Positions 460-63,891 of a stretch of 63,891 nucleotides of DNA are shown here, in pieces. Source of the DNA: Raillietiella orientalis (taxonomy: Eukaryota); contig JAYWIR010000148.1 of the NCBI GenBank assembly GCA_036172245.1, forward strand, positions 1 to 63,891. The letters run 5' to 3'. Within the stretch, counting starts at the first letter, position 1, and every line of letters starts with the position of its first letter. The notes under the pieces are model-generated. The model was not told the origin of the DNA. It did no database searches and saw only the letters and a program-made list of their open reading frames with translations. The position numbers were made by a program, and so were the translations under genes.

Positions 460-473
460 TACTGCTGGGAAGA

Positions 474-2135: not shown

Positions 2136-2228
2136 CGCTGCCTGATCGACCACCGAACCACACGACGCTTGCACTGGGGGAGACTTCCTGGCACGAGGAG
2201 CACCGAGAAAACACGTCCACCCTAGAGC

Positions 2229-4336
2229 GCACAAGGCGTTCGACTGTGTACACCAGGATCTCCTCCTAGAGCTCCTGAGTCGCATGGGCTTCCGACCCTC
2301 CTTGATTCCCTACCTGCGCTCTTGCTGGCGGAACGCGATAATTTCGATTTCTTTCAGCAGTCAAAAGGTGTATAACGTGCCGGTGCGGCGAGGCATACGG
2401 CAAGGCGATAGTCTAAGTTCCCTGCTCTTTAGCACCTACTTTCAGTTGGAGCTGAGAGCGTACAGAGTGATTTTGTCCCCCATGACGAGCTCATGTCCCG
2501 GCACGCCCGCCGTAAGTGTTTATGGTTACGTTTTGCTGCTCTTGTTACCTATGTGCACCCCGGCGAAGGAGGTCGGAGATTTCTTCGACCTCCTCAACCG
2601 CGGGACCGGACTGCAGGTGAACAGGGCGAAGTCGTCGGTGGTGCCAGTTGGTGCGGCGTGGGCAGGGCAGCAGGACTGGGTCCGTTTTGGGCCCTCCATG
2701 GGAGGTGCATCGAGTACCTTGGTGTGCCGTTGAAGGACTTCTCCCCTGCGGAAGCGTGGTCGAGCTGCGTGCAAAAAGTCGAGACGGCGATCGGCCCGTT
2801 CCTGGAAGGCAAGTTTCACTTGCCGGAAGGGGCCGCGGTTTGCAACGCCTTTGTGGCCTTCATCCTCCGCCTCTGCCTTTTTGTTTGCCCTGCCCCAGGA
2901 GTTTTTAAAAAGAGGGCGAAGGATCTCTTCCGCATCGCCATTTGGGGCGAGGGGAAGCCCCGAGTCCCTTTGAAGGACCTTTGCGTTCCTCGTCCGGCCG
3001 GCAGACTTAGCCTCTTTACGCTGGAACGCCTGGAGAAACAGCTGCCATGGCATATTCTCGCCAACGCTGCGAAAATGTGGAGCACCTTGTGGTGGATTCC
3101 GGCTCGCCATCTACCCAGTCTTGTGTCCTGGTGCGAGGGACTTGCGTCTTTTCTTCTGTGCCCTGGTGGGAAAATCAGAAGATGCGGCCTCTAGCACGGG
3201 CGCATGGCATCGTTGGCCATAGAGAACAGCTGGATGGTTTGCTGCCCCGATAACTCTTCCGCCTGGCTGAAGGAGAACATCGGAACGTGGGAAGTGGTGA
3301 ATGAGAGAAGCCACGTAACGTGGAATCGTCTCCGATGCAGCCCCTACGCCTCCTGTACTCTGAGAAATCTCCTAGAGAATCCAGCTAGGAGCACGTGGGC
3401 GGAGACAACCTGCCTGGTTACGGCGCTGCCCTTCCTAAGAAGGGCGCTTCATAGCAGTCGGACGCTAAGGTAACAAGTCTCCTGCTGCATCGAAGGACGC
3501 GAGAAGTTGATCAGGGGCTGGACAACAGGAGAACTGGCCGACGCCACGACCCCGAGCGTCCAGCCGCGAGGACTAAGAAGATGGGGCGAGCTGCTGGCCA
3601 TCCCTATTGATGTGATGAAGTGGCCTCCGCTTCTTCAGGAATCCAGGATCCTGCCCCTTAAGTGGAAAGAGTCGGCGTTGCTGTTGTTGCATTGGGGTTT
3701 ACCCTGCAACGCACGCCGCTCTCACTGGACAATAGAAGTTGTGGATCCTGCGTGTGTTAGGTGCGGAGAGCGGGAATCGCTCTCTCACCTTATTGTGGAC
3801 TGTGCTTCCCTTCGTCCCCTTTGCGAACGGTTGGGACGATCCTCGATCTCCCTACGGGCAGTTCCCCTAGAGACGTTCTTCAACCCCTCTTCGTGAAGGA
3901 CGCCCTGCAGCTAGCCGCAGCCCTTGCAGCCTTGTGCGGCGTCCGAGGCATCGTGGCGGTATGGAGCGACACCAACACGGAAAAGTTGGTCAACACGCGA
4001 TTGATGTCATCCAATATGCCCAACGCTTCTTGCAGAGAGCTGCTGGATGGCCCCGACTGAGGAACATACGGATGGACCTCGAGGGCTTTCTTCAACGAAT
4101 GGGCCCTCCTCTGGGAGAACAGAGATTCCTTCCCTGCTCTCCAACCTCTTTTGTTTGTTTGGGTTTTCATTTTCACTTTTGTTTTTTTCTCATCCCCTTT
4201 CGTTGCCGGAAAATGCCACGCCGGGCTCCGTCCCGGCGTCGCGGTAGGTCCCGTGCATAAGGCCGTGAGCGGGGACTGGTACCGCAATTGTAGAGCTTTT
4301 TATTGATAAACGCACCGGGTGTTCCCGGGTGGCAAC
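2229..4336 (+). mobile_element. Family C element, 3' part (RT from HKAFD, CCHC finger, 3'UTR)
   Basis: HKAFDCV, RGIRQGDSLS, YLGVPL, CVRCGERESLSHLIVDC, T-rich 3'UTR, ATAAA plus hairpin ending GGTGGCAAC. Confidence 0.9.
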
Positions 4337-4414
4337 TTCAAATCCCCGTGACAAGAGGTGCAAGGGGAACTCCTCGCAAAACTCGAGGACCGAGGCCTTA
4401 AAAAGGTCCCAATC
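4337..4414 (-). mobile_element. 78-bp ORF2 fragment of the host element that continues at 21138
   Basis: Reverse complement reads DWDLFKASVLEFCEEFPLHLLSRGFE, contiguous with GVTLQSLY at 21138-21162. Confidence 0.85.
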
Positions 4415-4437
4415 AGCGAAATTGCGGAGCGTCGAGC

Positions 4438-4444
4438 GGACGTG
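4438..4444 (+). promoter_or_regulatory. Conserved 5'UTR motif RGACGTG (DPE-like candidate internal promoter element); representative copy
   Basis: Present exactly or with small changes near all 12 element 5' ends. Confidence 0.5.
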
Positions 4445-4514
4445 TCTTTTCGTTGCTCCTGAGTCTCATTTCCGTTAGTGCTTGTGCGTGGAGTGGGTGG
4501 AGGATTAGGCACCA

Positions 4515-6167
4515 ATGCCTGATACCACCACCGGTGAGGATCCGGTGGCGATGACCTCATTGCCCCCGAAGGAGATGGAGGTGGGGGCTCCCGCATCATT
4601 GGAGGCTCCCGCCAGCACAAATGCGCCCCCGGCCCTACCCAGGGCTTGGAACGTCGTTGCTGCGGCACCTACGCCAGCGGCTATGGCGGAAATACGCGCT
4701 AACCTGGAGGAGGGGTATAACCCACCCCTTCTATATAAGGTAGGCGGTTTATATTCTCCCGAGAATGCGCGCGCCTTTTCGCAGGCGATGCGCGTTCTCG
4801 GTGTACTAAAAGAGGAGCTTCTGGCTATGTCAGTCAGAAGCGGGGGTCAATTTGTGGAAGTTATCTGCAAGGAGGCAACTCTTGCGCAGAGACTTCTGCA
4901 AATCCGCGTAATTATGGGCAGCTGCAGGCTTCTCCTAATTACTGAAGAACGGTCAGTGATCATTCACCTGACCGGTATCAAGTTCCGGATGACCAAGAAG
5001 GCCGTCCGGAACGAATTAGAAAAATTTGCAGCTGTCCACGCGCTGTGGGGAAACCCTACACCTTTTGTCGATTACGACGGGGTTCTTGGCGGCCTGGGTG
5101 CAGCGTCAGTGACGGTTTGCGAGGGATTTGAGTTTCCCCACAAGTTCACCGTCAACGGTGAATCCGCTGACGTGTGGTACGTGGGGAAACCCAAGTTTTG
5201 CGGCTGCTGCAGCAGCTTTGCTCACCTTAAAATGAGGTTTCCGTGCGTGCAGTGCCAGCAATGCAAACAAGCGGGGCACACCCGTCTGGTGTGCCCCCAA
5301 AACACAGTCCGCGTCGTGTCCGCGAAAAACGCGAGAAAGCGCGCGGATAAAAACAGAAAGAAGCTGGAAGCTCGTGCTGCTTTCAAGGAGGACACCTCCG
5401 TCACCAAGACGAAGGCCAGCTTCGAGACCCCGGCGAAAAACGCCGAAAAGGTCGAGGGCGAGGGTCAAGAGCCAGGGTGGCAGAAGGTCGACCCCAAGAA
5501 AAACTCCCATAAGAAGGGAAAGAACGTGGCGAAACGGAGCGAAACCGCTCTGCGCCGCGAAAAAATTAAAAGCTGCTGCGTCGTTGTAGAGCGGATTCCC
5601 GCCATCGACGAATGCGGCGCTAAAGAACTCGCTGCTGCCCCTGCTCAACCCTCCGTTTACAAAGTCAACAAGGAGGGGAGCGAGGCGGCGGCGTCCGTCA
5701 TCGAGCCCACGCTCGATGACGTCGCCTTCGAGCGCGCCGCGGAGGAGCTGGCTGCCTCGTTGCAGCCGGTTGCCCCCAAGGCTGGCAAGAAGGCCGTCAG
5801 GCGTCCGGCTTCCCCTCAGGAGTCGGCCACTTCCGATCCCGAGGTGAAGGCCGGAAACACAGCATCCATCTCCGCGGCACCCCGCAAAAAGGCAGGACGA
5901 AAGTCCACAATGCCCCGGAAGATCGTCTCCCCCGACGAAGGGGAAGAGATGGCTTCCGGTCGCGAGGGTGCCATGAGCGTGGGAAACTCCCGGGACCCGT
6001 CGCCCGAGAGAATTCCACGCTCGGACACGGAGGGGATGGTGAGGATGGAGGCCGAACAGGTACCCCAGGCGCCTGAAGAGGCCTCCGTCCTCGTTCCGAT
6101 GGTCCTCGTACCGATGGACCTTTCGTACACCTGCCCCGCGGCAGGTGCCGCGACGCCACTTTCCTAG
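4515..6167 (+). CDS. ORF1 nucleic-acid-binding protein (550 aa), zinc-knuckle region, low-complexity C-terminus
   Basis: Open frame; WYVGKPKFCGCCSSFAH and CQQCKQAGHTRLVC; the stop is 2 codons earlier than in the sister copy (CAG to TAG). Confidence 0.88.
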   Translation: MPDTTTGEDPVAMTSLPPKEMEVGAPASLEAPASTNAPPALPRAWNVVAAAPTPAAMAEIRANLEEGYNPPLLYKVGGLYSPENARAFSQAMRVLGVLKEELLAMSVRSGGQFVEVICKEATLAQRLLQIRVIMGSCRLLLITEERSVIIHLTGIKFRMTKKAVRNELEKFAAVHALWGNPTPFVDYDGVLGGLGAASVTVCEGFEFPHKFTVNGESADVWYVGKPKFCGCCSSFAHLKMRFPCVQCQQCKQAGHTRLVCPQNTVRVVSAKNARKRADKNRKKLEARAAFKEDTSVTKTKASFETPAKNAEKVEGEGQEPGWQKVDPKKNSHKKGKNVAKRSETALRREKIKSCCVVVERIPAIDECGAKELAAAPAQPSVYKVNKEGSEAAASVIEPTLDDVAFERAAEELAASLQPVAPKAGKKAVRRPASPQESATSDPEVKAGNTASISAAPRKKAGRKSTMPRKIVSPDEGEEMASGREGAMSVGNSRDPSPERIPRSDTEGMVRMEAEQVPQAPEEASVLVPMVLVPMDLSYTCPAAGAATPLS

Positions 6168-6172
6168 CCATA

Positions 6173-9100
6173 ATGCCGGGAATCGCCTCTCGCCGTCGTC
6201 TTCTGATCGCCTGTTGGAACGTGAACGGGCTAAGCGACGACGGCAAGAAACGTGACGTGGCCGCCACCCTGGCATCCTTCGACCTGGTGCTGCTGCAGGA
6301 GATCCACGTGATCTCCGCAGATCAAGCCCGGGAGATCGAACGGATCTCGGGTGGGCGGCTGTTGTGGCGTTGCGGCACCGCGAAATCAAGCGGTGTCGCC
6401 TTCCTGCTTCGGCCAGCCATCGAGACCGCAATAAAGGACGTTCGGTTCGATGACGCAGGTCGCTTCGGTCAGCTGACTCTCAGCTGGTCCGACTCTATCG
6501 ACCTGGTCGTCACCAACCTATACGCTCCTAGCGGAAACAACGCGTTGAGGGCGAAGGCAAGAAGGGAATTCTACCTTGCCCTGAGACGCGATTGGCTGAC
6601 CGATGCAGGAGTTCGCAAAGCGCACCTGATCGCAGGTGATTTCAACCTGCGCCTGCTTTCAGGTGCGCCGGATACACTGAACGACCGCGTCAACGAGTTG
6701 TGCGCAGAAATGAACCCGCGCAACTTGTTGGCCGGGTACACGGCCATGGAAAGCAGCATCGATCACGTGTACCTTGATCAGCACCTATGCTCTCGGGTGG
6801 GCAGGCGCGGCAAGGTACCATCCGAGCTGTCGGACCATGGTCGGATCATGTTCGAAGTGCGTCCGCGCGACAAGGGCCCCCCCTCGTCAGCGTGGCGTCT
6901 GCCAGGGGACTGGTTGAAGTTTCCCGACGCGGCGGAGCACCTCCGCGCGTTTATTCGGAGCTTCAGGATGCAGACACTTCAGGACTGGGACCGCTTCAAG
7001 CGGTCGGTCCAGGAGTTCTGCGACCAGTTCCCCCTGCATCGCCTACCTGCGGGATTTGGGGAGGGGCCGCGTAACGAAAGGTGCTATCTTCAGGCCCGAC
7101 GTTACGCGAGAACCCCCGACATGCGCAGGTTAGCAGAGTATCGAGCGGGAGCCAAGAGGCAAGCCTGGCAATCCCGGTCGGCTAGCTTGCTGGACGACCA
7201 GGGCCGGGAGCACTCGGCTCCTGCTCAGGAGCGCGGCATTGTGAAGAAATTTTACTCCTCCCTGTATGCCAGGGCGCCTCCGGAGCGAGACATCTCACGA
7301 CTTCTGCTTCCGGAAGGTGCTCCAGCGATCGGGGAGGAGGAGAAAAGAAGCCTCGACGAGCCTTTCACGATGGACGAGATCCTCTCGGCCATCGGAAAGC
7401 TCAAGAGGCGGAAGGCTCCAGGGGAGGACGGCCTGCCCGCGGAGTTTTACCAAACTTTCGCGGCTGAGCTTACTCCCCTGGTACATCAGCTCACCTTGCT
7501 GATCCGTGAAACAGGTGACGTTCCCACCTCGTTTCGTTCAGCAAAGGTGCGGCTCCTCCCGAAGGGAGGAGACCTAAGGAGCATGAACAACTGACGTCCC
7601 ATCACAATAGTGAATTCGGACGCCAAGTTGATAGCCAAGATGTAAGCAGAGCGTCAGGGACGTGTTGCCAGCATCTTCATCAGCCCGGAACAGACTTATC
7701 CTGTTCCCGGGCGGAGCATGGAGGCGAACCTGTTCCACGCTTCCACATGGTTAGAGCTCTAACAAGGAATGGGATTATTGAGCAGCCGGAATTCCGGTGC
7801 GTCTGTTGGCGGGAGACGGAACGGTCGGGTAAGGAAGGGAGCCCTTGCGGTCGCTGTCGACTTGCGTAAAGCATTCGACAGCGTCGACCAGAATCTCCTG
7901 CTGGAGCTTCTGGAACGCTTGGGCTTCCCGGCCTCTTTGTTGGCCTACCTGCGCTCCAGCTGGCGCGACGCGCTCATTAATGTTCTTTTCAGCGGACAAA
8001 CCGTGCACGGAGTAGCGGTGCGACGCGGCATACGGCAGGGAGACAGTCTGAGTCCCTTCCTATTCAGTACCTACTTCGAGTTGGTACTGAGAGCGTACAG
8101 GGAGACTCTGGCGCACCTGTCGAGCGATTGTCCCGGTACGCCTGCGGTTTGGGCATACGCGGACGATCTTCTGCTGCTGCTGCCTATGTACACCCCGTCT
8201 TCGGCGGTCGAGGAGTTCTTCGACCTGCTGCATCGGGGAACCGGACTTATGGTGGACAGGGCGAAGTCATCCGTAAGGCCAGTAGGAGCGGCGTGGGCTG
8301 GGCAGCAGGACTGGGTCCGTTTGGGGATCCCCACGGTGAGGTACTTCAAGTACCTTGGTGTGCCGTTGGGGGACTATTCCCCTGTAAAAGCGTGGTCCGG
8401 CTGCCTTCAGAAGGCTTATGCGGCGATCGGTCCGTTTCAGGACGGCAGGTTCTTCCTGCATGAACGGGCCGCGGCGTGGAACGCGTTTGTGGCCCACCTC
8501 CTTCGCCCCTTGCTTTTTGTTTGCCCCCCCTGAGCAGAGTCAAAGAAGGGGACGAAGGACCTCCTGAGGATCGCCCTTTGGGGCAGAGGGAGGCCCCGAG
8601 TCCGTCTTTCCGACTTGTGCGCTCCTTGTCTGGATTGTGGTCTGGGCCTTTTGACGTTGGAACGGCTGGAGTTACAGCTCCAGTTCCGAGTTGTTCCCTT
8701 TATGGCAGAAAATTGCGGCACCCCTGGGTGCCTCCTTGCACGTCTCCTCGTCGAGCGGGCCACCGGCAATGCGAAACTCTCGTCCTACATTGCACTCCGA
8801 AGCTTCATCTGCCACTGCGGACTTCAACTTCGGAGGGCGGCCAAGCTCGTGAAGAACAACTCGGCGCGGATCCTCGTACGCCCCGCGAACGATCCTGCCT
8901 GGTTGCAGGAAACCGTACGCATGTGGGCGATGATTCAGGAGCAGAGCCCGCAACACGAGTGAATAGCTCTGTTCGGGCCGCATGCCCACCGCACGCTCCG
9001 AGAAATCGTCGAGAATCCCCGAAGGAGAGCGTGGGCACAAAGAACCTCCCTTGCTGCGGTACTGCCTACCCTACGGGAACATCTGAGCAGCGACGTCGCG

Positions 9101-9754
9101 GCACAATGTGAGGTTACTGTCAAGATCGCCAGCAGAGCAAAGAAGATCGGGGATTAGAGAACGGGTCAGATCATTAACGCTGCGACCCCGAGGACCACCC
9201 CAAATGGACTGTTGCGCTGGGGAGAGCTACTGGATGTTCCAGAGGAACATCTCGAGTGGCCGCCGGTGCTCATGGAATCGCTCACCCTCCCCATGAAGTG
9301 GCAACAGTCGGCACTGCTTGTGATGCATTGGGGGCTTCCTTGCAACGCCCGCCGACACCACTGGACGCGGGGGTGTGTCAACCCTAATTGTGTCAGGTGC
9401 GGGGAGAGGGAATACCTCCTCCACCTGTTAGTGGATTCTTTTGCCCTCCGTGTTTTGTGGGAACGCTTTGCCGCAGCCCTGGGGATCCACGGAGGCAACC
9501 CTAGAGACGCTTTGCATACCCTTCTCGTCCGTGACGCCCTGCCTTCAGCGGCCTCGCTTTCAGCCCTGTGCTGCCTACGCGGGATCGTCGTAGCATGGAG
9601 TAAAGCAACGGGAGGATCCAGCGACACGAATGCCAACGTGTATGCCGCCCGTTTCCTCAGGATGGCGACGCGATGGCCCCTTCTGGAACCACACACGCAG
9701 AAACAGCTTGCCGGCTTTCTCCATAGGACGACGGTCCCTCCCAGAAGACTGTGA
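6173..9754 (+). pseudogene. ORF2: APE endonuclease + reverse transcriptase + C-terminal CCHC finger, several stops and a frameshift
   Basis: WNVNG, LQEIH, NLYAP, GDFN, SIDH, SDH; KAPGEDG, RPIT, KAFD, RQGDSLSP, YADD, KYLG; CVRCGEREYLLHLLVDS. Confidence 0.93.
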
Positions 9755-9822
9755 TTCCTTCCCGCTCCCTCCCTGATTTTTGTTTATTTCTTGTTTTCTT
9801 TTTGTTTCGTTCCTTCTCCCCT

Positions 9823-9966
9823 CTGCTGCAGAGGTCGACCGCGCGGGTCTGCGCACCGGTAGCCCGGCAAGCTATATTTTTCCAGGACGTGGATGGACTA
9901 CTGGTCCAGTCACAGATTGTATAGGTTTATTCGTGAGAATTAACGTCCCGGCGCACCCGAGTTTCA
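9823..9966 (+). other. Structured 3'UTR and terminal stem-loop; representative copy
   Basis: Stems are preserved with compensatory changes among families. Confidence 0.7.
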
Positions 9967-12610
9967 AGCGAGATTACAGAGCGTCGAGCGGACGTGTCTT
10001 TTCGTTGCTCCTGAGTTTCCTTTCCGTTGGTGCTTGTGCGTGATGTGGGTGGAGGATTAGGCAGCAATGCCTGATACCACCACCGGTAAGGATCCGGGAT
10101 CGATGACCTCATTGCCCCCGGAGGAGATGGAGTTGGGTGCTCCCGCATCAGTGGAGGCTCCCGCCAGCACGGATGCGCCCTCGGCCCTACCCAGGACTCG
10201 GAACGCCGTGGCTGCGGCACCTACGCCAGCGGCTATGGCGGAAATGCGCGCTTACTTGAAGAAGGGGTATAACCCACCCCTTCTATATGAGGTAAGCGGT
10301 TTACATTCTCCCGGGAACGCGCGCGCCTTTTCGCAGGCGATGCGCGTTCTCGGTGTACAAAAAGAGGAGCTTCTGGCTATGTCCGTCTGAAGCGGGGGTC
10401 AATTTGTGGAAGTTATCTGCAAGGAGGCAACTCTTGCGCAGAGACTTCTGCGAACCCCCATAATTATGGGCAGCCGGAGGCTTCTCCTAATTACTGAAGA
10501 CCGGTCGGTGATCATTCACCTGACCGGTATCACGTTCCGGATCACGAACGAGGCCGTCCGGAACGAATTCGAAAAATTTGCAACTGTCCACGCCCTGTGG
10601 GGTAAGCCTCCTTCTTTTGTTGATTACGACGGGGTGCCTGGCGGCCTGGGTGCTGCGCGAGTGACGGTTCGCGAGGGATGTGTTTCCCCACAAACTCACC
10701 GTCAACGGTGAATCTGTTGACGTGTGGTACGTGGGGAAACCCAAGTTTTGCGTCTGCTGCAGCATCTTTGGTAACCTCAAAATGAGGTTTCCGTGCGTGC
10801 AGTGCCAGCAATGCAAACAAGCGGGACACACCCGTCTGGTGTGCCCCCAAAACACAGTCCGCGTCGTGTCCGCGAAAAACGCGAGAAAGCGCGCGGATAA
10901 AAACAGAAAGAAGCTGGAAGCTCGTGCTGCTTTCAAGGAGGACACCTCCGTCACCAAGACGAAGGCCAGCTTCGAGACCCCGGCGAAAAACGCCGAAAAG
11001 GTCGAGGGCGAGGGTCAAGAGCCAGGGTGGCAGAAGGTCGACCCCAAGAAAAACTCCCATAAGGAGGGAAAGAACGTGGCGAAACGGAGCGAAACCGCTC
11101 TGTGCCGCGAAAAAATTAAAAGCTGCTGCGTCGTTGTAGAGCGGATTCGCGTCATCGACGAATGCGGCGCTAAACAACTCGCTGCTGCCCCTGCTCAACC
11201 CTGCGTTTACAAAGTCAACAAGGAGGGGAGCGAGGCGGCGGCGTCCGTCATCGAACCCACGCTCGATCACGTCGCCTTCGAGCGCGCCCCGAAGGAGCTG
11301 GCTGCCTCGTTGCAGCCGGTTGTCCCCAAGGATAGCAAGAAGGCCGCAAGGCGTCCGGCTCCCCCTCAGGAGTCGGCCACTTCGGACCCCGAGGTGAAGG
11401 CCGGAAACACAGCATCCACCTCCGCGGCAGCCCGCAAAAAGGCAGGACGAAAGTCCACAATGCCCCGCAAGATCGTCTCCCCCGACGAAGGGGAAGAGAT
11501 GGCTTCCGGTCGCGAGGGTGCCATGAGCGTGGGAAACTCCCGGCACCCGTCGCCCGAGAGAATTCCACGCTCGGACACGGAGGGGATGGTGAGGATGGAA
11601 GCCGAACAGCTACCCCAGGCGCCTGAAGAGGCCTTCGTCCTCGTTCCGATGGTCCTCGTACCGATGGACCTTTCCTACACATGCCCCGCGGGAGGTGCCG
11701 CGACGCCACTTTCCCAGCCATAATGCCGGGGATCGTTTCTCGCCGTCCTCTTCTGATCGCCTGTTGAAACGTGAACGGGCTAAGCGACGACGGCAAGAAG
11801 CGTGACGCGACCGCCACCCTGGCATCCTTCGACCTGGTGCTGCTGCAGGAGATCCACGTTATCTCCGCAGATCAAGCCCGGGAGATCGAACGGGTCTCGG
11901 GAGGGCGGCTGTTGTGGCGTTGCGGCACCGAGAAATTAAGCGGTGTCGCCTTCCTGCTTCGGCAAGCCATCGAGACCGCAATAAAGGACGTTCAGTTGGA
12001 TGACGCAGGTCGCGTCGGTCAGCTGACTCTCAGCTGGTCCGACTCTATCGACCTGTTCGCCACCAACCTATACGCTCCTAGCGGAAACGCCGCGTTGAGG
12101 GCGAAGGCAAGAAGAAAGTTCTCCCTTGCCCTGAGATGCGATTGGCTGACCGATGCAGGAGTTCGCAAAGCGCACCTGATCGCTGGTGATTTCAACTTCT
12201 TCCTGCTTTCAGGTGCGTCGGATACAGTGAACGACCGCTTCAACGAGTTGTGCGCAGAAATGCACACGCGCAAATTGTTGGCCGGGGACAAGGCCATGGA
12301 AAGCAGCATCGATCACGTGTACCTCGAGCAGCACCTATGCTCTCGGGTGGGCAGGCGCGGCAAGGTGCCATCCGAGCTGTCGGACCATGGTCGGATCATG
12401 TTCGAAGTTCGTTTACGCGACAAGGGCGCCCCCTCGTCAGCGTGGCGTCTGACAGGGGACTGGCTGAAGTTTCCCGACGCGGCGGAGCACCTCCACGCGT
12501 TTATTTGGAGCTTCAGGATGCAGACACTTCAGGACTGTGACCGCTTCAAGCGGTCGGTCCAGGAGTTGTGCGACCAGTTCCCCCTGCATCGCCTACCTGC
12601 GGGATTTTGG

Positions 12611-49237: not shown

Positions 49238-49247
49238 TTTCTTAGTG

Positions 49248-49409
49248 TTTCATCCGGGTAAGCCGGGGCCTTTATTACTAAAATTTTGAAATTACAAAAT
49301 TTTGTAACAGAGTCTATGTTGTTAAAATTTTTGTTTTTACGACGTCAGAAGTTCAGATCAGAAGTTTGGTAGCACTTGTGCTTACCGACCCGGAGGTCGA
49401 TAAGGTCCT
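49248..49409 (-). mobile_element. About 160-bp 3'UTR-only copy of family Y
   Basis: Shares GACCTTATCG...GTCGGTAAGNACAAGTGC and TAATAAA.GCCCCGGCT.ACCCGG.TGAAA with 60289-60480. Confidence 0.8.
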
Positions 49410-50822: not shown

Positions 50823-53800
50823 GTGTAATCAGTTTTTTTTTGAGGGAGCCTTCTGTTGATTGATGAATATGCGCGCTACGGTTATTCTTCAGAAATATTG
50901 ACTTTTGTAAGAGATTTCTTCATGAGGAACCCATATCTCTGCGGAGGTGGTTCCTTACGTCTCCTGTTCCCACCAAGATTCGGTCACTTTACAATAGGCA
51001 TCCTTTGGGTGAAGACTATCGTAGACGCGTTGGCAAAGTAGTGATATCTTTCCCGAAAAAGGGTTGGATTTTTTATTATTCTATCACCACTAGAATTCTC
51101 AGAGAAGCCATTTTGAAAAATTGCTAATTGCACAAGAAAAATTAGATTGTGTTTCTTGCAAACGAATATTTTGAAGGCTGTGATTTTGTTTGTGTTTTCT
51201 TGGTAAAATGATGAAGTCTTCGTTTAATCGTCACATTGCACGACGAATAATGACTCTTTTATTCATCAGCACGGTACAAGCTGCAAGTAGATATGAATCT
51301 TAGCAGTATGTTTATTTTCAGTTTATTTCTTCATTTCAAGCCAAAAAACATTAAAGCCTGTTTTCGCTACTCATGACGAGGCTTTTTTTGGAGCTGACTA
51401 GCTTTCAGAAAATCCAAAAGACAAATGGAATCTTTTTCAAAGGTGCAATTCACACTGAATGGCGTTTTAAGTACGATGACCACTTTTCCACTCACTTCCT
51501 CGCTGAAAGATTGTGTTTAAGAAAAACGAATATTGAGATTGCAAAGTAATTGCGCATTTTCAATGTTGCTTACATTTCTGAAGGCTCATTGGATCATTTT
51601 TGTGGTAAAGTTGTCGAGACCCTCCCATAGGTGTGCGCATTTTGAACGAAAAGCACAAGGGTTTTGACCAGAAAACTAAAAATTTCGGGACACTAAGAAA
51701 AATAGCGCTGGGAAATTAAGAGTTCTTAGAAGGTTCGATTGGTTTTTGAGTTTTGATGTTGCATTTTGCAACTACGAGCTGACGTCGGAACCGAGCATAT
51801 TGCTTTCATGCCTTATCAATTTGCGGCAGATGCTTGCATCCCGGCTGGCGATTATGTCGTCAAGGAAGCAGAGGAAAAAGCGGAAGTTTAAATAATAAAA
51901 GCATGTCCAAATCAAAAGAACACACGGATGCGTTATTCATGCGAAAGGGAAGCCTAGATGGAATGCTTAATTAGGTAGTTGTCTTACTTGATATTAGGTT
52001 TAACTTGGCAATGACATGGTCCTCTTATGAAGTTAGCATAGACTGATACATTCAACGGAACTCCGAAAAAAGACTAAGAAAAACGATTTAATCTATCTGA
52101 ATGTTCACTGCCTCCTTACCGTCACCAACACTGAACAAGATTGCCTATGAGGTGTAGGCAATGTATTTGTAGTCCATGCTACCTTGCACGGATTCCATGG
52201 TTCCTCAGGAGATGGTGTCAGAAGAATGAATGAACACTTCCCTGTGGAATCCTCAAACTTGATGTCGTTAATAGTTTGTCGGAACATAAAAGCATTCTCT
52301 TCAGCGTTGTTTATTTTAAGGCAGAGAACTGCCATCACCATCAGCAGGCACTGAAACGTGAAATTTGTCAAAACGAAAATTTTCTACTATGTTGTGCATG
52401 GCGGGCAGAGGTCCGGATAGGAGGCTGGGAAAGTCAATCACTATTCTCGCCTCGATCTCAAATGCACATGGAAACTCTCGAAAAAACGGAGTTGCGCTCC
52501 GAAATAGCAGAAAGCCCAATGGACAACGTGATTGCTTCAATACTTCCCGTATTTTAAATTACGCGTGTTGTATCTTCACCGTTTTTAGCATTTTCACATA
52601 CAGTATGCAAGGATAAGTTTAATTTTTCAAGCCTCGAAGTTTTGTTGTTCCCTCGGAATAACCTTGACAGTAATACATGGAAAGCAAATATTCCCGTTGC
52701 TCCCATCTCCAGCTCTTGCATAAAGTCCGAGTGTGTTTTCGACGATGGTGATATAAGGTAAAACCTCGCACGCGGTCAACGTGTGCCTTACAGTAGCTCC
52801 CATTGATAAGAGGTGCAAAACTGCAGAATGAGGCGGCATTTTGCAATGCTTCTTTGCTTACAAATTCAGAAACACGAAAGTGCCATTCCCTCGCTAGCAT
52901 AGGGAGGACGAATTTTCGTAAATCGCGAAAGAGAGCGTTTCGAATGAGCGTAGGTCCTGGCGTGCCTTTTTCAGGTTGCGATATGTCGGTTTGCATTCGG
53001 TGTTTCGCGAACGTTCATCATCAAAACTTTTTACCCGCCCAACAGTTTGTTTGCATAATCATAAGACATTTCCTTCATAGGAACTTCATTAACAATTGTG
53101 AATTTGAAAGAATCTAACCCCATACGCACATTTGGAAGCATCATTATGCCGAAATTCCTTTGCACTTCCTCTTTAAAGCAAAAAGAAGAACGCACTCGAA
53201 TATTAGAAGAACTGAAGTTCCTTTCTTAGAATGTGGTGCGGAGTTGGTCAACTTATATTTGCTCGTGGGAGCACAACAGGCGAACCCCTTGCGTAAGTAC
53301 CGCAATATGGTTGTTGTCAAAACACAAACACATCATCTCCATGCATGCTCGCAAATTTCTCAGAATTTCTTTTCTTCAGGATCGAAGAGAAAACTCAAGA
53401 TTCCTCTTCATGAGCTGCGTACACCTCTCATGCTTGTAAGCGCTTATGCATGTGTGGTCCGCTGCATCATTTCTCCCTCATGTTCGCGGAGAGCAGCAGC
53501 CAATTCGAAGCTGCCGCGAAAGGTAAAATAACAAATTGGAGAACTCTTTTGGGAAAGAAAAGAAAGGTTTCACTGCTGAAATGGATGTTGCGAGCATCCT
53601 TCTGTGAGTTTTCTCCACTTTTCTTTATCTCAATTTCTTATGCTTACTTTATTGTGAACAGAGAGAGGCATGTCGGGGAAGCCGTAGACCACTACTCGTA
53701 ATATTAAGATATGAAAACTTTGATTCCGGAAATACTGCGTACTAATGAAAAGTGAGTTCGCAGCAGGGTGAGGAAAAATAGGTTCAAAGGTGAAAACAAG

Positions 53801-56800
53801 CCTAGGTGTGATAAATAGGAGCTTCATGATATGGTATGTCGCTTAGCTATTTGCCCAAAAAGTTGAGTTAAGGATTATTATTGCGATGCTTCCATACCAA
53901 GAAAGTAGGAAATAGGCAAAACCATGGTGTCATTCCCCCACTTGAGCAGACGGAGAAGTATAAAGATGATACTGCGTTCAAAAGTATACTTGGTTGCCTG
54001 GAGGATAAGTGCAGGGGAAGAACGAGCTTATAATTGCGTTTATACAATCAACTGGTTTGGTTGTTTACTTCCCAGCTGCTTTAGCTGATGTTGGATAAAA
54101 ATCGTTGAGAACAAAAATGGTAATAAGAAAGAAAATAAGATGAAAATTGTCTATGCCACATAGAGCGAAGAAGAACCACAAATAAACCTCTGAGAAAGAT
54201 ATTCGGAACTTGGTGAAATTCAACATTCTTGATAATGTAGCGAGTGATCCACCTGGATTCGGCGGTGTTGTCGACGGTAAGTGAAATGGTTTTCTCGTGT
54301 TTAACCGCAGAAAGGTTCTTCACCTTGTTCGCTCACTCGATCGTTTATGCAGAATCTCATTCAGCGCAGTGGAAAGCAATGTGGGAAAAGTCCCAAGCAT
54401 GAAATATCCATACCAATATACAATTTTTCTTTACGACTCCCCAAACAAAGGAGAATCTTTGACTGAATAAACACGCTATTTAAAAGCTTCAGAGCGCTTT
54501 TATCCGGTAAAACAGCCAGTAAACATCAACTCGCAGGGAAAATAGCTCTAAACATGAAAAACAGGTGTGGCTCTGGATTCCCATGGGAAATTTCTCCGTA
54601 TCTTGTCAAGCGTACCAAAGGTCCAAGCACAGATTGAAATTAGTTTTGTTTCATTCATAGTCAGAAGAGCGGAACAACAGATCTTTTTGATCGCTAGGGC
54701 TTGCACGTTTCTCTTTCTGCTTCCAAATCGCTAAACAAATGGAAAAAGGCTAATACAAGGGGAAGAAGATTTCATTTTAGTTTCCATAGAACGCATTCAG
54801 CCTTTCTTGAAAAAAGAATGATACACGGGGTTAATCGACATTTCCGGAATGCCGACTCTGAATTCTCTGTTTGCCGTTCTGATTTATGCAGCAATACTGG
54901 ATCTCAATCAAGGCGAAAGACGGGTGTATTCTCTTGTTGCACAATTGATCATTTGACTGATGTCTTTTGGAGCAAGGATGTGTTTTGAAAAAATTGGATA
55001 ATCGCCAATGTGAACCTGCAACGAATCGTCTCAGGAATTCTCGAAGCGTTAGAATGTTTTGCTCTGTTTACTGGTGCGCACTAGCTTCAATGTGCTTCAA
55101 GAAGAGAGCTTTGATGAAAAACGTGGACGGTGGGAGAAAATATACCAATGATACATGGAGCAACATGCGAGACAAACTTTCTGCCGTGGACATGGAAACC
55201 AAGCAGGAGGCTTTGATCTGTGTATCTCCTGACACCTATGAAAACAAGGCAAGTCGATCTCCCCCGTATACACGGCAGGTTTCTGGCTCAGGAGCAACAC
55301 GTGTAGGCCACGTGAGCAGGAAAGTTGCTAGAAGCAAGTCTTAACGTTTCTGAATACGAATAGAACAAACCAGGTGTGTGCGAGATTACCTGGGTAGGGT
55401 TCATAATTTATGATTCTTCGCAACTGCGCGAGATTCCTCCTATGCAAACATGGATGCAATGAAATGGAAATCACGGTCTCTAGATGAACATGCATCTTAG
55501 TCATGGGATTCTTCAAGAGGATTTATGTGTGCAAGAAACACATTCAATAATGCATGTGCATGCAAGAATGAGCTTAGGAATATTTGGATAAGGATACATG
55601 AAACAACAATGATGCTAATAAACCAAAATAGTTACGCAATGGTGTGAAGGTCGAGTATTGTCCTGGAGCACCGGGCAAGCGGTGCGCTTTCTTGCTCCTG
55701 CATTCAGATGATAAAGTTTTAGAGTTCGCTGCATGCTTGGAGGCTGCTGCAAGTATGGCTTCGTATGGATACCTTCAATCAAAATGTCTTGTTTATCAAG
55801 ATAGATGAAAATATAGCTTTTAGCAAAAGCTACGGCAGCGGGACATGGAGAGTACAGCGCTTAAACAGAAAAGAAATTTAGGAAGTACAGCAGCTTCATA
55901 ACAGACCCTCTATCCTCAATAGAGGTAAGAACGTAAATTAGAAAGATTAGAGAAATTACAAAAGCGTTTCCTTCTCAGGTTACACGGCTGCAGTTGTGCT
56001 ACAATCTATGTCCTCAGTTGAAGATATGTATGGAGAATCACGAAAAATCCAAGGTGGCTTTCCTAAACAAGGCATGAAAGTAACGGATTTGTGTGGTTTC
56101 ATCGAATCTGCCCAAGTTGCAAAAGCAGCATCCTGTAATTGGGATTGGGATTCAGATTTTTGCTCAGGCAGCTTGTGCTCTACTCACTACTAAAGTTCAG
56201 GTTATTCGGCTTGAAGGAAGGAAACTATCCACCTGGCAGGCTTAGGGCAACACCGAAGATGAGGAAACCGACGCAAGAAAGATGCAGTAGATCTGTGCAA
56301 ACTTTGAAAAGGATGAACTAAATGTGCTTATCTTATTCCAGCAGCTATCGCCTAGGCATCGGGAACAAAGCGCTTTCTCACTGTTCCTCCCGCTCTTTGG
56401 TGAGATAGAGCTTCTCTCACAGGTGTGTCACAGGAAGCTGGCATGCGCTCCTGCTCAATAGGAGTCCTCCTTTGGCGTAACTCGCGCCCAATGATTTCAC
56501 TCGCGCCAATAGTACCATGGGGATGCCCAGACTCCAGGGAATCAGGCTGCTTCTCGGAATCCACAGTTGTGTTCTTGTCCGCATTGCTGCCGCCCGCGGA
56601 CTTTCTTCTGCTATCACGAGAATGCGATGAGTGCTACTGCTTTACTAAACTGCGGTTTGTTGGGCGTCTCGGAGTTGCAGCACTTCAGAAGTGTTTTCCC
56701 TGTTCGTTACTTTTAGTAAAAACTCTTCAAAGAGCAGTAAGGAGCTGCGCTAATAATTATATCGACAAAATCTTGAGGAGAAATGGTTGCATGCATGAAT

Positions 56801-58700
56801 ATCTCAGAAAACTTTGTAAGATCGTCATCAAATTATTGCACTTTCCTAGACGCCGTTTTCGATCCGATGTTTTTCAGGTCCCGTGTCTTGGCAACACTGA
56901 ATTCAGTTCTTCAAATCCCCACCAGCAATACGGCATGGTCTTCGACGAATTCTTAACTGCGCGAAGTACATTTCTCTTGTACTCCGATAAAAGTATCTCT
57001 TGGTATTCTGTTCTCTGCAGCACATTCTTTGTGAGAGACTGTCTGTTTCCGGCTATACATCTTCCGGGATACAAGCATTATGAAACTTAGGAGCAAATTG
57101 CTGGTAGATTGCAACCTGCAAGAGCTTGAGCGGATTCATGCTATCATGCGCGATGTCCTGGAATGATGATGTGCTTGCTGTTGCCTTGTAGATCTCTGTG
57201 ATCAACCGTGCAATTTGTTAAAGAAAAACTATTCTTTTCAATGGAGTATGATACTTAGAAATTCCTGCGAAGATCGGACAATGAACGTTAATAATTAAAG
57301 GTGCAATACACTTTTAAAGATGCGACCACCTGCATACAGGATAACTCTCTTCCATGAAGCAACATTAGCAAACTCCTCAGCTGTAGAACGGGACCCAATA
57401 ACCTATCAATGGTTGACGACTTCTCAGCCATTCACCGACCCAGTCAACAACCCAGATCTGCGTATTCTCAAATAACACGTAAACAATAACATGTTAACAT
57501 GGTTAAACCATGTTAGCGTCCTCGTTTTAAACCCCTATCACAACATTACTTTTATTCCATAGTCCATCACAGTAACAAATAGACACTTGTCAATTCATAA
57601 CCCTTTACAGCTTATTGCTGAAAAAGTAAAGCCCTATTTGATAGATTTCGTTGTTGATTACATTCGGTAACCGCATTACGCTAGGAATCAACCATACGTC
57701 AGCAAACATTACTCAGCTTTGCACATGTTTCGCCATTTCGCGGTCGCAAATAAGAATTACAGAAATACAACTGTTTTTTCTTTTTCCATCCAAGGATAAC
57801 TTCAAACATGCCTTTGTCGAAAAATCTGCACCGAATGGATCCGAAAAGTATTTTCCTTATACAGCATTAACCGACTGAGTCATGAAGATTCATTTTGTGA
57901 ATATGAATTCTGCATGGACCCTACAGTGAGGAAAGTACATACTTTAGTCACTATTCCGCTCAACTTCTCACTGATTTATCAATGTTATTCCCTATCACTA
58001 TGAAATCATTTCATTACAAACATTCATCACCCCTAATACAATGAGCAACCCAAATGGAGAACATCTGCTTCCACCGTTCTAATGACTGCGCGTAAATTTT
58101 ACTTTCGGTAGATCAAAAATGCTATAGTGACACTATAGGAACGGAAAATTTAATAACGAATGGATCCATTATTACAATTGTTCTTCTCGAAGTACGTTGC
58201 GATCACTCCCATCTCATGGAAACTTATAGGATGGTGCATCCTCACATTGAACATTTGACATTCCATCTATTTTTCTGGAAAGTTTTTATTGTTGTCACTC
58301 AATCGCAACGCTAATATACTCTTCTGAAGTACATCAAGCAGTCTTAACTTCAAAAATAACTTGCGTTGCTTCGAGAATCTCGTTTGATAACAGAAATCCT
58401 TCTTCCAGTTGCTGCTAGCATGTGGTAGTCTTCTTCTTCAAATCCCAGTTATCGATGTTTCGTAATAGGCCTAAAAATTTCGCTTCAAAAGAAACAGCTG
58501 AAACATTTAATAGATCCACTAATGAAATTTAGAATTATCAGGAAATCCACATTCGGCAACAGAAGGCTGTGAGCTTATCCTCATCCGCGGAAACAACCCC
58601 CAGAAGTCAGAACGTCAGTCTAAGTAGCCGATTAGATGAATTACAGCACGCTGCGAGGCAAATGGGCAAGCACTTGAGCGAAAGAGGAAAACGTGAGAAA
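50823..58700. other. AT-rich island without these retrotransposons; no identifiable gene
   Basis: Abrupt drop in GC; only short ORFs without recognisable motifs. Confidence 0.6.
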
Positions 58701-58739
58701 GAATGTTGCGAATCCATCACGCTCCGACGTCGCGCTGCA

Positions 58740-60288: not shown

Positions 60289-62465
60289 TTTCACCCGGGT
60301 GAGCCGGGGCTTTTATTATTAAGATTTTTCAAAATACACACAAAAAGAAATTTCATAATAAAGTCATGATTTGTTTTTTTTTGTTGTTGTTGTTCTTGTT
60401 CTTGTTTTTCAGTCGGGACATATGGACCGAATGTCTTCAGGCACTTGTCCTTACCGACTTGAAGGCCGATAAGGTCCTCTACACTGGCGAAGGGGCGGGG
60501 AAAACCAAAAATAAACAAAAAAAAGAAAACGCCTGGGGGGACAATGCTCTTCGGGAGGGAGAGGGAAGGGAAGGAATCACGGTACGCCGTGAGGAGGCCT
60601 CTGCATCCCATCACGAATGCGGATGAGTGTCTGTAAGTGTTTTCCAAGTCGGCGCCAACGGCAGGCCTTCTCCAAGGAGATAATTGCCCAGTGGATGGCA
60701 TTCCGACTGGCATGTCCTCTCCTTGACGCGGTCCACTTGTCCAGTATTCCGCGTATGCAACAGAGCACTGCTACACACCCGGAAGCTGGCAAGGCGTCCT
60801 ACATCAGAAGTCGAAAAATGTTCTTCGGGTCGCCCAGCGGTATGTTGAAGCTCGACAGGAGTCTGTCTTACATATCGCGAAGGGCAACCGAGTCAATGAT
60901 CTAGTGAGGAAAGGTTTCTCTTTCCCCACAGTCTGGACAATTAGCATCAACACTCCCCTGTGTCCAGTGAGACAAGCGCGCTCTGCTTAACAGTCCCCAA
61001 TGAAGCAGAAGCAACGCCGTCTCCTGCCACTGCAGGGGAAGGGTGCCGTTATCCCACGACTCCGGGGGCCACTTCACCTCCTCCAGAGGTACTTCGAGCA
61101 GCGCGCCCCAGCGTGAAAGTCCATTCGGCATGACACTCGGGGTACAAGCTTCCGCTAGTTTCCGAGACGTCCACGCCTTCAATAATTTTCTCCTGCCTCC
61201 GATGAGGCAGGACACTTCCCAAGATGCCCCCTGCTGGCTGTCCCGAACTTCCCTGAGGGAGGGCAGCACTAAGGCAAGGGGGAGAAAGGAGGCCCACAGA
61301 CGCTTCCGTGGGTTGCTGACGATTTGCTGCAGTGGCTGACCAGCGTACCTGCCTCTACGAAGGCAGGAGAAGTCCTCATCGCTGGAGCCGTTGATTATGG
61401 CCCATGCGGAAACGAAATCCTGGAGCCTGGTGGTCCAGTCCGCAGGGATGCAGGAAATCCACGGATTGTCTCTCAACAGGGCAATAAAGTCCCGCAGCTG
61501 AAAACCACAGTGGTTAAGGCTGCGGTCGTTGGCTACTTGGATTGAGGTCAATCCATGGCAGCCGGATGCCCTGTGAGCCAGGAGTCTCGAGGATGCACAC
61601 CAGGATGCGGTCCAGTACTTTGCAACAAGGGCGAGTTTACGGAATTAGAGCTGTCGCTACATGGGCTCCAGCGTCAGGAGACCAAGTCCACCGTCCCTGC
61701 GTGGAGCCCACAAGTCTTTAAGACGGACGCGGGGCCTCCGATTGCCCCAGGGGGCTTTTCTAATGAGACCCCTTGTCCTTTGATGACTTTATGGAGTTAT
61801 GGGGCATACAAAAAGTAGGATACAAAGGAGGAAGGCCGCAAAAGCGTTCCACATTGCGTTTCGTTCCTGCAAGTAACACTTGCCGTCCCGGAACGGGCCT
61901 ATCGCCAACTCCACCTCTTGGAGACGGGCGGACCAGGCTTCTGCTTCGCAGAACTCCCCCAACGGAACGCCCAGGTACTTCAAGTATTCGCCCGTGTGGA
62001 TCCCCAAACGGATCCGGTCCGACCCATTAGCCCTCGACGAGTCCGGAGAAATGATTGACGACTTCGCCCTGTTTTCATCGAAGCCTGTCCCACGGTTCAG
62101 CAACTCGAAGAAATCTTCGAGAGCCGATGCCGAAGTGGACCCAATAAGCAGAAGCAGAAGGTCGTCGGCATAGGCCGACACGGCAGGCGTGCCGAAACAT
62201 GAGCTCGGCAGAGTTGCCAAAGTCTCCCTGTATGCTCTCAGCACCAACTCAAAGTAGATGCTGCAGAGCAGGGGGTTCAGGCTGTCACCCTGCCGGATGC
62301 CGCGACGAACCGGCACGCCGCACACGTGCCGTTCGCTGAATCTGATGTTAATTAGCGCGGAGCGCCAGCAAGAGCGCAGGTACGCCAGGAAGACGGTCGG
62401 AAATCCCAAGCGTTCCAGGAGCTCCAGGAGGAGCTCCTGGTCGACTCAATCGAAAGCTTTAAGTC
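60289..62465 (-). mobile_element. Family Y element, 3' part from KAFD
   Basis: RGIRQGDSLNP, YADD, KYLG, CPDCGERETFPH, 3'UTR and terminal hairpin. Confidence 0.88.
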
Positions 62466-63891
62466 GCTTAGAGCAGACGTGTATCCTAGGTGCTCCTCGT
62501 GCCGGCAACCGTCCCTAGGTGTTGGCTTCGTGTTTGGTGGTGGTCGATCAGGAAGCAATGCCTGACACGACCACCAGTGCGTGTCAGACGGCGGTGGCAA
62601 CGTCGCCTCCTGAAGTAATGGAGCGCCAGGTGGCGGCGGCAACGTCGCCTCTAGAAAAGTTGGAATGCCAGGAAGCGGCGGCAACGTCGCCTTCAGTGGC
62701 GAAGGAGGTGGAGGCGACCGCCCCCACAAAACCGGTCCACGCTGCAGCTCGGGCATGAAGCGCCGTCGTGTCGGCGCCATCGCCTGCAGCCGCGGCTAAA
62801 TTATCTGCCTATGTAGAAGAGGGGTATATCCCATCGCTATTCTACAAGGTAGTGTATTTGTATCCCTCTGAGAGCGCGCGCGCCTTTTCGAAGGGGATGC
62901 GCGCACTCGATATTAAAGAGGAGGGGCTCTGCGCTATGACCATTCGTAGCGGGGGGCAGTACGTAGAGGTGATCTGCAAACACGCAGATCTGGCCCAACA
63001 TCTGCTCAAAACTCACGTGGTGATTGGGACACGCAGGCTCCTTCTTAGTATGGCGGATCAAATTATGGTGGTCCACCTTTTAGGAGTTACCGCGCGGATG
63101 CGAAAAGAAATATTAGACGCCGCGTTAAGAAAAGAAGGCACGGTCCATGCAGTATGGACCAAGCTTAGTACTTTTGGAGACGATACCACAGTTCAGTGCG
63201 ACCTCACAGGTACCCGTGTAACCGTTTGGGAGAGCTCTACCCTTCCCCAGAAACTGGTAATCGGCGGAGAAAGGGTCGATCTCTGGTACGTGGGGAAGCC
63301 CAAATATTGTGGGTTCCGCAACACGTCGGGACACCTCAAAAGGAGGTGCCCCAACGTACAGTGCCTGGTATGCGGGACAATGGGACACACGAAGGAAGTA
63401 TGTCCACAATCCGCTGTGCGCGTGGTTTCCGCAAGGAACCTAAAAAAACGCGCGCGGCTGCTACAGAAAAAACTGGCGGCGAAGGCTGCCGCTCAAGCTG
63501 TGCCACCCACTCCCGTGGTCCAGGCCTCAGCCGACACCCCGGCAACGAATGCCGAAAAAATCGACAACAGCGGTCAGGTGTCGGAATGGCAAGAAGCCAC
63601 AGCGAAAAAAAAAAAGTGGAAGAAAGAACGACGAATTGAAAAAAGCTCGCCTACCAAAATAAAAAGCAGCAGGTTAGCGAGAATTTAAAACAATGCAGCG
63701 TCATCGGGGAAGGCGTTTACGCCGAACGCCGCAAGGTAGAAATCGCTTCTACCGACGAGCAACCCACTGTTGAAAATGTCAACAGCGTGGGGAGCGAACC
63801 GGCGGAAGCGTCCGCCATCTAGACCGTGATCGATGACGCCGCCTACGAGCGTGCAGCGGAGGAGCTGGCTGCATCGTTGCAGCCAGACCTC
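62466..63891 (+). mobile_element. Family A element, 5' part; runs off the window end
   Basis: A-type 5'UTR with AGACGTG; ORF1 from 62558 with CLVCGTMGHTKEVC. Confidence 0.9.
62590..62717 (+). repeat. Three 42-bp units (AATSPxExME-like) in the ORF1 N-terminus
   Basis: GGCAACGTCGCCT recurs at 42-bp spacing; other family A copies have two units. Confidence 0.78.

Follow-up and report, generated by a model that had tools for sequence, protein, structure and literature searches.

A family of L1-like retrotransposons, family A, was found in a 63,891-nt stretch of Raillietiella orientalis DNA (GenBank assembly GCA_036172245.1, contig JAYWIR010000148.1, positions 1 to 63,891; the window) with the 5′ end of each copy set against the reverse transcriptase (RT) gene of another long interspersed nuclear element (LINE), on the opposite strand and at the codons HKAFD. 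Family A is probably a target-specific L1-like LINE with an APE (apurinic/apyrimidinic)-type endonuclease and an RT, whose target is the motif-A codons (VD-L-HKAFD) of other LINE families in the same cluster, entered in antisense orientation. The observations behind this reading are four A 5′ junctions at one site in differing host lineages and one 3′ junction at the matching position. The sample was this single 64-kb window, within which all four A copies are decayed and incomplete.

Positions within elements are given in the coordinates (ref) of S4, a full-length copy of 5551 bp at 4415-9965 (+) that belongs to family B, the sister of A. The map was made with nhmmer using S4 and a second full-length copy, E2 (12612-18275, −), as queries, and it covers the repeat part of the window without gaps. 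Copy A1 (1-2228, −; ref 18-2215, nhmmer 3-2224) leaves the window at its left edge, A2 (23744-25096, −; ref 1-1368) is interrupted at ref 1368 by the 5′ end of another element, M, A3 (42907-46462, +; ref 1-3561) keeps its own uninterrupted motif A, RKAFD, at 46352-46366, and A4 (62466-63891, +; ref 1-1355), the most diverged copy, leaves the window at its right edge. The adjoining host pieces are H1 (2229-4334, +; ref 3450-5536, to the 3′ end), of an E2/K-like clade and with RT from HKAFD; H2 (25097-27177, +; from ref 3449), with a strongly decayed RT from (Y)KA(S)(G) codons; H3 (40793-42906, −; from ref 3450), with RT from HKA(S)D; and its sister H4 (60292-62465, −; from ref 3451), with RT from (L)KAFD. 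All four thus begin at ref 3449-3451 and extend to the 3′ end.

At 2228/2229 the A1 5′ end (−) is followed on the + strand by GCACAAGGCGTTCGAC..., and the arrangement at 25096/25097 is the same with decayed codons (TATAAAGCGTCCGGC). At 42906/42907 the sequence ...GTCTGATGCTTTGTGA is followed by the A3 5′ end (+), and at 62465/62466 ...ATCGAAAGCTTTAAGTC is followed by the A4 5′ end. Three of the four junctions fall at the identical nucleotide, immediately after the His codon; the fourth (62465/62466) has no His codon and carries about 5 odd bases. The initial annotation had placed four family A 5′ ends (2228, 25096, 42907 and 62466) beside opposite-strand host sequence at (H)KAFD, and both the sequence and the map bear this out. 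Antisense HKAFD adjoins 4/4 A 5′ ends and 0/8 of the other LINE 5′ ends in the window, where no A copy lies away from KAFD. When junctions were modelled as uniform over a 5.5-kb target in either orientation, the chance of three further hits within 7 nt of the first was about 2.5e-10 (hand arithmetic). Family A therefore shows repeated hits at the same position and in fixed orientation on one target (4/4, at least three of them independent).

The cluster is a nest of related non-LTR (long terminal repeat) retrotransposons that takes up 1-50.9 kb and 58.5-63.9 kb of the window and is GC-rich (about 55-61%). Domain searches covered S4 (family B, A's sister). S4 encodes an open reading frame (ORF) 1 protein of 552 aa with no Pfam match, an APE-type endonuclease (Pfam Exo_endo_phos PF03372, E 3e-16, window 6077-7594) and an RT (Pfam RVT_1 PF00078, E 5e-15). 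The closest solved structures were those of human L1 ORF2p (PDB; E 3e-33 for the RT and 1e-25 for the region linking endonuclease and RT), and the PDB matches of the endonuclease included L1 endonuclease structures. To judge by these matches, the elements of the window are L1-like non-LTR retrotransposons with an APE endonuclease and an RT. In the alignment to human L1 ORF2p, the Asp of S4 ‘aiavDlhqAFD’ lies opposite the Asp of ‘isiDaekAFD’, and the S4 site is taken by us to be RT motif A, bearing the first catalytic aspartate. The earlier premise that KAFD marks that motif is therefore sound. All 3′ ends inspected were without an A tract; they finish in ...CCGGGTGA(C)AA or in ...GGGTTTC, downstream of an AATAAA-like box. 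A poly(A) tail is typical of L1 but does not define LINEs. The common 3′ tail reads AATAAACGCCCCGGCG...CCGGGTGA(C)AA, with the family B variant ...GGGTTTC (4290-4334, 9920-9965, 12612-12660 and 47012-47060).

Twelve copies in the window extend to their own 5′ end. In a tree of these 12 5′ regions, A1-A4 cluster as a single clade (support 1.0) that has family B (S4, S5) as its sister, and the tree further contains E (E2, M, P), Q, and N (N, R), so that at least five LINE lineages are present in the nest. Its depth is at least eight levels, and its clusters were built by insertion into existing copies. The 5′ untranslated region (UTR) of family A holds 2-2.5 copies of a 42-bp GC-rich tandem repeat (2028-2110, 43024-43106 and 62590-62696), and that of Q holds a 24/48-bp repeat array (35312-35524). 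At the A 5′ end, the Rfam scan of the window detected neither a ribozyme nor any other Rfam family.

A fixed A-host composite was tested for by aligning the copies (c1-c4) in parts split at the junction, with the A side compared separately from the host side. Identity was higher on the A side for c1-c2 (83.2% against 58.1% on the host side; Fisher p 2e-36), for c1-c3 (90.0%, A1 against A3 over 1337 nt, and 69.1%; p 1.4e-33), for c2-c3 (80.9% and 61.8%; p 1e-21), for c1-c4 (75.0% and 66.6%; p 4e-5) and for c2-c4 (69.5% and 59.3%; p 2e-6). The maximum-likelihood change-point lay 47 columns from the junction for c1-c2 and 19 columns for c1-c3, 238-305 columns into the conserved RT for c2-c3, c1-c4 and c2-c4, and 1100 columns off, on the A side, for c3-c4. 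In a tree of the ten pieces that run from KAFD to the 3′ end, H1 groups with K (ultrafast bootstrap 100) within the E2/Q group, H3 and H4 are sisters, and H2, about 50% identical to every other 3′ piece, forms a long branch beside them. Monophyly of H1-H4, imposed as a constraint, was rejected (delta lnL 125, approximately unbiased (AU) test p 1.7e-44). The tree of the A copies, (A4,(A3,(A1,A2))), in which A4 is about 70-75% identical to A1-A3, is incongruent with that of the hosts. From the identity steps among c1-c3, the polyphyly of the hosts and this incongruence it follows that the composites arose at least three times and, most simply and probably, four times. The initial annotation had named four host families; the hosts do differ, and they represent three lineages (H1 with K/E2, the sisters H3 and H4, and the very diverged H2). 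Nor is the antisense KAFD segment a fixed part of the A 5′ end, the host sides being 58-69% identical where the A sides are 81-90% identical, and a fixed composite is ruled out by the drop in identity at the junction together with the polyphyletic hosts.

A weaker form of the same idea, that segmental duplication, or mobilisation as a unit, multiplied one or two ancestral A-host composites and that gene conversion later homogenised their A parts, is very improbable. Single high-scoring segment pairs (HSPs) in a self-BLAST do span the junction (1-3034 against 45121-42101 at 85.8%, 832-2684 against 23744-25552 at 78.0%, and 844-3043 against 63887-61649 at 71.5%), and c3 and c4 are equally diverged on either side of it. 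The HSPs cross, however, only because all hosts are homologous RTs, and the 19-25 point fall in identity at the junction among c1, c2 and c3 contradicts copying for three of the four copies, as does the polyphyly of the hosts. The flanks beyond the hosts also differ, H1 being placed in M (ref 2648) and H2 in P (ref 1949), whereas H3 precedes N and H4 has an E-type fragment beside it.

A comparison of the two arms bears on twin priming, or 5′ inversion within one event, in which the breakpoint would be set at KAFD by pairing of the 5′-end cDNA with the KAFD region. The topology is that of an L1 5′ inversion, with an inverted 5′ segment ending at base 1 and a direct 3′ segment, and an overlap of about 111 nt (ref 3450-3561) exists between the arms of c3. 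Over this overlap (the 112 nt past KAFD), however, A3 is 75.0% identical to H3 and 87.5% and 86.6% identical to S4 and S7, so that the arms come from different families and priming on a single RNA is excluded. The A arms group as a single clade, in contrast to the polyphyletic host arms, and A RNA would have had to serve as a second template for each of four different host families. We regard this explanation as exceedingly improbable.

Target-primed insertion by family A itself would account for the junctions as follows. The A endonuclease would recognise about 15-25 bp round the KAFD codons and would nick the host sense strand just past the GAY (Asp) codon of KAFD, and the freed 3′ OH would prime reverse transcription of A RNA (target-primed reverse transcription). 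The second strand would be cut about 15 nt off, between the Leu and His codons, leaving the A 5′ end beside antisense ...TTYGTG and the HKAFD codons duplicated as a target-site duplication (TSD). The predicted TSD is a 14-15 bp duplication of CAYAARGCNTTCGAY, with antisense ATCGAA... at the A 3′ end. Such an insertion would split the catalytic Asp of motif A from the remaining RT, and the host copy would be dead; a selective rationale might be a safe haven inside other transposable elements (TEs), the killing of competitors, or both. Nick positions, TSD length, endonuclease recognition and any selective rationale are what we infer from the junctions.

A motif-A search of the window returned 14 matches, against 9.5 expected by chance, of which nine are RT motif-A sites; alignment added three more decayed ones, giving 12. 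Seven of these are uninterrupted (S4, with motif A intact at 7868-7879, E2, S7, Q, K, A3 and G), four are downstream halves (H1-H4) and one is an upstream half (F). At occupied sites the His codon is CAC in H1 (2230-2232), H3 and F (46997-46999) and TAT in H2, and the same position at unoccupied sites holds CAT (E2, Q, G, S7), CGT/CGG (S4 7865-7867, A3 46352-46354) or CAG (K). CAC is thus present at 3/4 hit sites with a legible codon and at 0/7 unhit sites, in a small sample that is confounded by phylogeny. The pattern may be relevant to how targets are chosen or to an immunity of the A/B clade against itself.

When 16 pieces were aligned, the 20-mer from ref 3450 ranked 307/5521 by conservation (mean pairwise identity 0.73) and the flanking windows at ref 3427 and ref 3479 were within the top five (0.83), which places the KAFD site within the most conserved block of these elements. 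The rationale proposed in the initial annotation, that the site is one that hosts cannot easily mutate away, would fit this conservation, which is high though not the highest.

The one 3′ junction at the KAFD site in the window lies at 47011/47012, where the 3′ end of element G (47012-49242, −; ref 3338 to the end) adjoins element F, an upstream RT half of another family (46463/46555-47011, +; ref about 2915/3018 to 3465) that ends in ...CACAAAGCATTCGAT, exactly past the D codon of KAFD. G is antisense to F. The junction had been reported before and is present as described, and an A/B-type 3′ end exactly after the D codon and in antisense is the geometry that the proposed mechanism would give. 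G is chimeric. From ref 3338 to about 3615, including the region around its own KAFD, it is Q/E-like (86% identical to Q and 65% to A3), and from about ref 3627 to the 3′ end it is A/B-like, with the last 160-260 nt and most of the body nearest to family B (65-91%); the switch falls in the conserved RQGD-coding stretch of the RT. The Q/E-like segment rules out G as a plain family A copy. The 3′ part of G may well be family A, since B has A as its sister in the 5′ tree and this part as its sister in the 3′ tree; none of the A copies of the window extends that far.

F is 61-65% identical to all other families. Its end, CACAAAGCATTCGAT, shares 12 of 15 positions with the start of H3, CACAAAGCATCAGAC, and H3 and F have in common a string, CACAAAGCAT, that is found in no other copy. 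F and the 3′ part of G may be what first lay to the right of the A3 insertion, turned round by recombination between RTs in inverted orientation; this is favoured by the 12/15 identity, by the common string and by the crossover in G, which fits such recombination. Alternatively, F may be a separate H-type element that lies within A3 at ref 3561 and was later hit independently by G. Under both readings an A/B-type 3′ end occupies the predicted position. An ORF of 315 codons (46103-47050, +) runs in frame through the join of A3 (ref 3561) and F (ref about 2915), which may be due to chance in GC-rich DNA. To the right of G, the region at 49.2-50.9 kb is heavily rearranged. R (49243-50070, −), an internally deleted element of the N clade of about 830 bp, consists of the 5′ 670 nt and an AT-rich 3′ UTR ending in ...CCCGGATGAA and sits inside G, with the same orientation, at about ref 3338. 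The stretch 50053-50819 contains a pair of oppositely oriented H3-like 3′ fragments, one with 81.7% identity to H3.

Several observations weigh against target-specific insertion by family A. For none of the A copies does the window include both junctions, an empty site or a TSD: A1 and A4 leave it at its edges, A2 is cut by M and A3 stops at ref 3561. G is not assignable to family A, and where it overlaps A3 (ref 3338-3561) its identity is 65-76% with A3 against 86% with Q, so that the TSD rests on one 3′ junction that is not proven to be of family A. The TSD of 14-15 bp put forward in the initial annotation has a 3′ junction at the matching position in its favour and pairs the A 5′ joins with the 3′ junction of a different piece. 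The pair c3-c4 has no identity step (A side 74.4%, host side 76.0%; p 0.44), and these two could derive from one origin, leaving three sure events. Finally, 7/12 motif-A sites are unoccupied, those of the A/B and E/Q clades included. Repeated independent antisense insertion at HKAFD, as initially interpreted, stands against these points, while the TSD and the homing rationale are conjectural.

A second recurrent site, within the linker that joins endonuclease and RT (ref 2642-2648), is used at four junctions by clade E, again antisense to the host. Junctions of the ref 2647 type are found at 4334/4335 (H1 3′ end in M), 12611/12612 (E2 3′ end in S5/S7) and 38058/38059 (K 3′ end in N), and the P 5′ end in K (29207-29210) lies within about 10 nt of the ref 2648 site. 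E2 shows both junctions, with contiguous host coordinates 2647/2642 and a TSD of 5-6 bp (CCCAA). Site-specific nesting is thus a general habit of the cluster. The ref 2647 site is poorly conserved (0.50, rank 3774 in the 16-piece alignment), which means that conservation is no general rule for insertion sites in the nest.

Because the H1 3′ end lies at the canonical ref 2648 site of M, H1 is an ordinary, earlier clade-E insertion that A1 entered later. Across the left half of the window the elements are nested in the order N > K > P > H2 > A2 > M > H1 > A1, with S4 and S5/S7 (with E2) also inside M, and the branch lengths of A2 (0.159) and A1 (0.037) agree with it; the missing halves would lie beyond the left window edge. 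The roles might be reversed, several families having inserted, 5′-truncated at KAFD, beside the 5′ ends of resident A copies, and the window does show only A 5′ ends next to host parts that run from KAFD to the 3′ end. Truncation of four lineages at one codon has no mechanism, however. The position of H1, 2.1 kb from A1, is explained by the specificity of H1 itself, and the nesting order is coherent only with A entering its hosts. Little credence is given to this reversal.

The E2 insertion also bears on the alternative that specificity lies in the 5′ join only. In that case A would nick elsewhere or non-specifically in LINE DNA, and its cDNA would be joined at KAFD through microhomology or a structural preference, with variable loss of host sequence. 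Such an account would suit the want of a visible 3′ junction on any A copy, the offset of the c4 junction with its approximately 5 odd bases, and the GGACGTGT core shared by the LINE 5′ ends, whose upstream bases loosely resemble antisense KAFD by eye. It is nevertheless unlikely: the G/F 3′ junction is exactly at the position of the staggered cut, there is no convincing microhomology between the A 5′ terminus (GCTCTAGGG...) and the host bases past the His codon, and E2 at ref 2647, with both junctions site-specific and a short TSD, demonstrates true target specificity within the group.

A broader reading extends target specificity from family A to the whole nest, as a closed ecosystem of at least five sister LINE lineages whose endonucleases are each tuned to sites in the others, with A as a ‘killer’ that homes to the RT motif of its rivals and with A and B immune to themselves. 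We put it forward tentatively, as a possibility with the balance clearly against it. Lineage A would then have HKAFD as its site, clade E ref 2647, B either ref 2569 or B 3′ ends, and N an H-type 3′ end, and A and B would escape self-targeting because their own motif is R-KAFD (CGN) and not H-KAFD. If true, this would be inter-TE warfare by homing with target-site immunity.

The remaining pieces of the map are as follows. The M element is represented by 21137-23743 (−; ref 1-2569), whose 5′ end cuts A2, and by an 80-nt piece at 4335-4414 (−; ref 2568-2648). S5 (9967-12611, +; ref 1-2647) and S7 (18276-21136, +; from ref 2642 to the end) lie on either side of E2, P occupies 27178-29210 (−; ref 19-1949), and K (29207-29797 and 35700-38058, +) is divided by the full-length Q (29799-35699, −). 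N lies at 38059-40790 (−; ref 1-2647). S4 and S5 (4415-12611) are 93-99% identical across most of the 5′ half, and S4 and S7 (18276-21136) are merely 78-90% identical in the 3′ half, with a step near the E2 insertion point (ref about 2650-2760); this suggests either gene conversion between tandem neighbours that halted at the nested element or that S5 and S7 are separate elements. Head-to-tail joins of 3′ and 5′ ends are found at S4-S5 (9965-9967, with 1 nt between), H3-N (40790-40793) and X-R (50052-50070). Neither the N/R 5′ clade nor the H 3′ clade has its partner halves in the window, and the two may together represent a single family, either tandem-forming or aimed at its own 3′ end; template jumping may also account for the head-to-tail joins. 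The nest, with elements of about 59% GC next to a stretch of 42% GC, is split by 50.9-58.5 kb (50900-58500; 41-44% GC), where long ORFs, tRNA genes and Rfam matches were sought (with Rfam and tRNA scans of the window) and none was found.

Relatives outside the window were sought by protein and nucleotide comparison. The best long relatives in protein searches were 31-32% identical, and a JGI protein of 619 aa, P0087, was 67% identical and likewise has R-KAFD; no close sequence relative of the window elements was found among the protein searches (best identities 31% and 67%). Metagenome relatives of P0087 (seven loci, best-segment identity 22-35%, with one 28-residue match of 61%) were judged unrelated to this family and were not used. 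When metagenome contigs were scanned for exact matches to a degenerate 26-mer of the A 5′ UTR, 0 were found. In an Atlas search a ‘Transposon TX1’ cluster was returned at rank 22 with a score of 0.88 and is treated as a lead only.

If family A has the specificity proposed, it would represent parasitism or competition of transposon on transposon, in which rivals that lost the target would lose RT activity. It would account, too, for the ability of LINE-only nests (Zepp-like clusters, candidate centromeric or heterochromatic blocks) to grow without hits to genes, and it would provide a natural set of related APE endonucleases with differing, readable specificities that could inform how specificity is acquired.

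Among LINEs, target specificity is known towards rDNA, snRNA genes, telomeres, microsatellites and one DNA transposon, and examples are Tx1L in the Tx1D transposon of Xenopus, R1 in 28S rDNA and TRAS/SART in telomeric repeats. In the open-access literature searched, no report of a LINE targeting the RT motif of another LINE was found. Compared with known systems, the present case differs in what is hit, namely the catalytic-motif codons of other LINE families, in its antisense orientation and in a hint that each sister lineage has its own site. Passages of one paper place target-specific APE LINEs in the Tx1 and R1 clades and name ‘transposons’ among their known targets (PMC4640811). Family A resembles these LINEs as an element with an APE endonuclease and an RT that lands repeatedly, and in fixed orientation, at one defined sequence of a multicopy target, and a transposon target has precedent among them. 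It is unlike them in that its target is the catalytic motif-A coding sequence of other LINEs' RT, that it hits several diverged LINE lineages in antisense, and that several sister lineages of its nest appear to use other sites in one another.

For Zepp and ZeppL of green algae, excerpts of two reports describe LINEs that ‘target existing copies’ and form nested clusters, Zepp having 61% GC within a 53% GC genome (PMC8226300, PMC3446292). As depicted there, they share with the present nest GC-rich L1-type LINEs, targeting of existing copies and nested clusters. In the same excerpts Zepp is one family in tandem arrays, mostly 5′-truncated and with poly(A)-tailed 3′ ends, whereas here there are at least five lineages, 12 copies reaching the 5′ end and no poly(A), and the insertion points, unlike those portrayed for Zepp, are precise, family-specific and antisense. 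Part of a report on Cnl1 of Cryptococcus likewise describes a LINE that prefers to insert within its own copies and forms nested arrays (PMC9942834). By that partial account Cnl1 enters itself, in tandem orientation and in subtelomeres, whereas family A enters other families, in antisense and at the RT motif-A codons.

A further parallel lies outside the LINEs, as the target of family A is a conserved, functionally constrained coding site like that of homing endonuclease genes and mobile introns. Homing endonuclease genes and mobile group I and II introns are selfish elements with conserved, constrained coding targets, so that their targets persist. The persistence of homing endonuclease genes is among the subjects taken up in passages of the paper cited above (PMC4640811). 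Unlike these elements, family A would destroy the host RT, as it does not splice, and its mechanism would be target-primed reverse transcription by a LINE.

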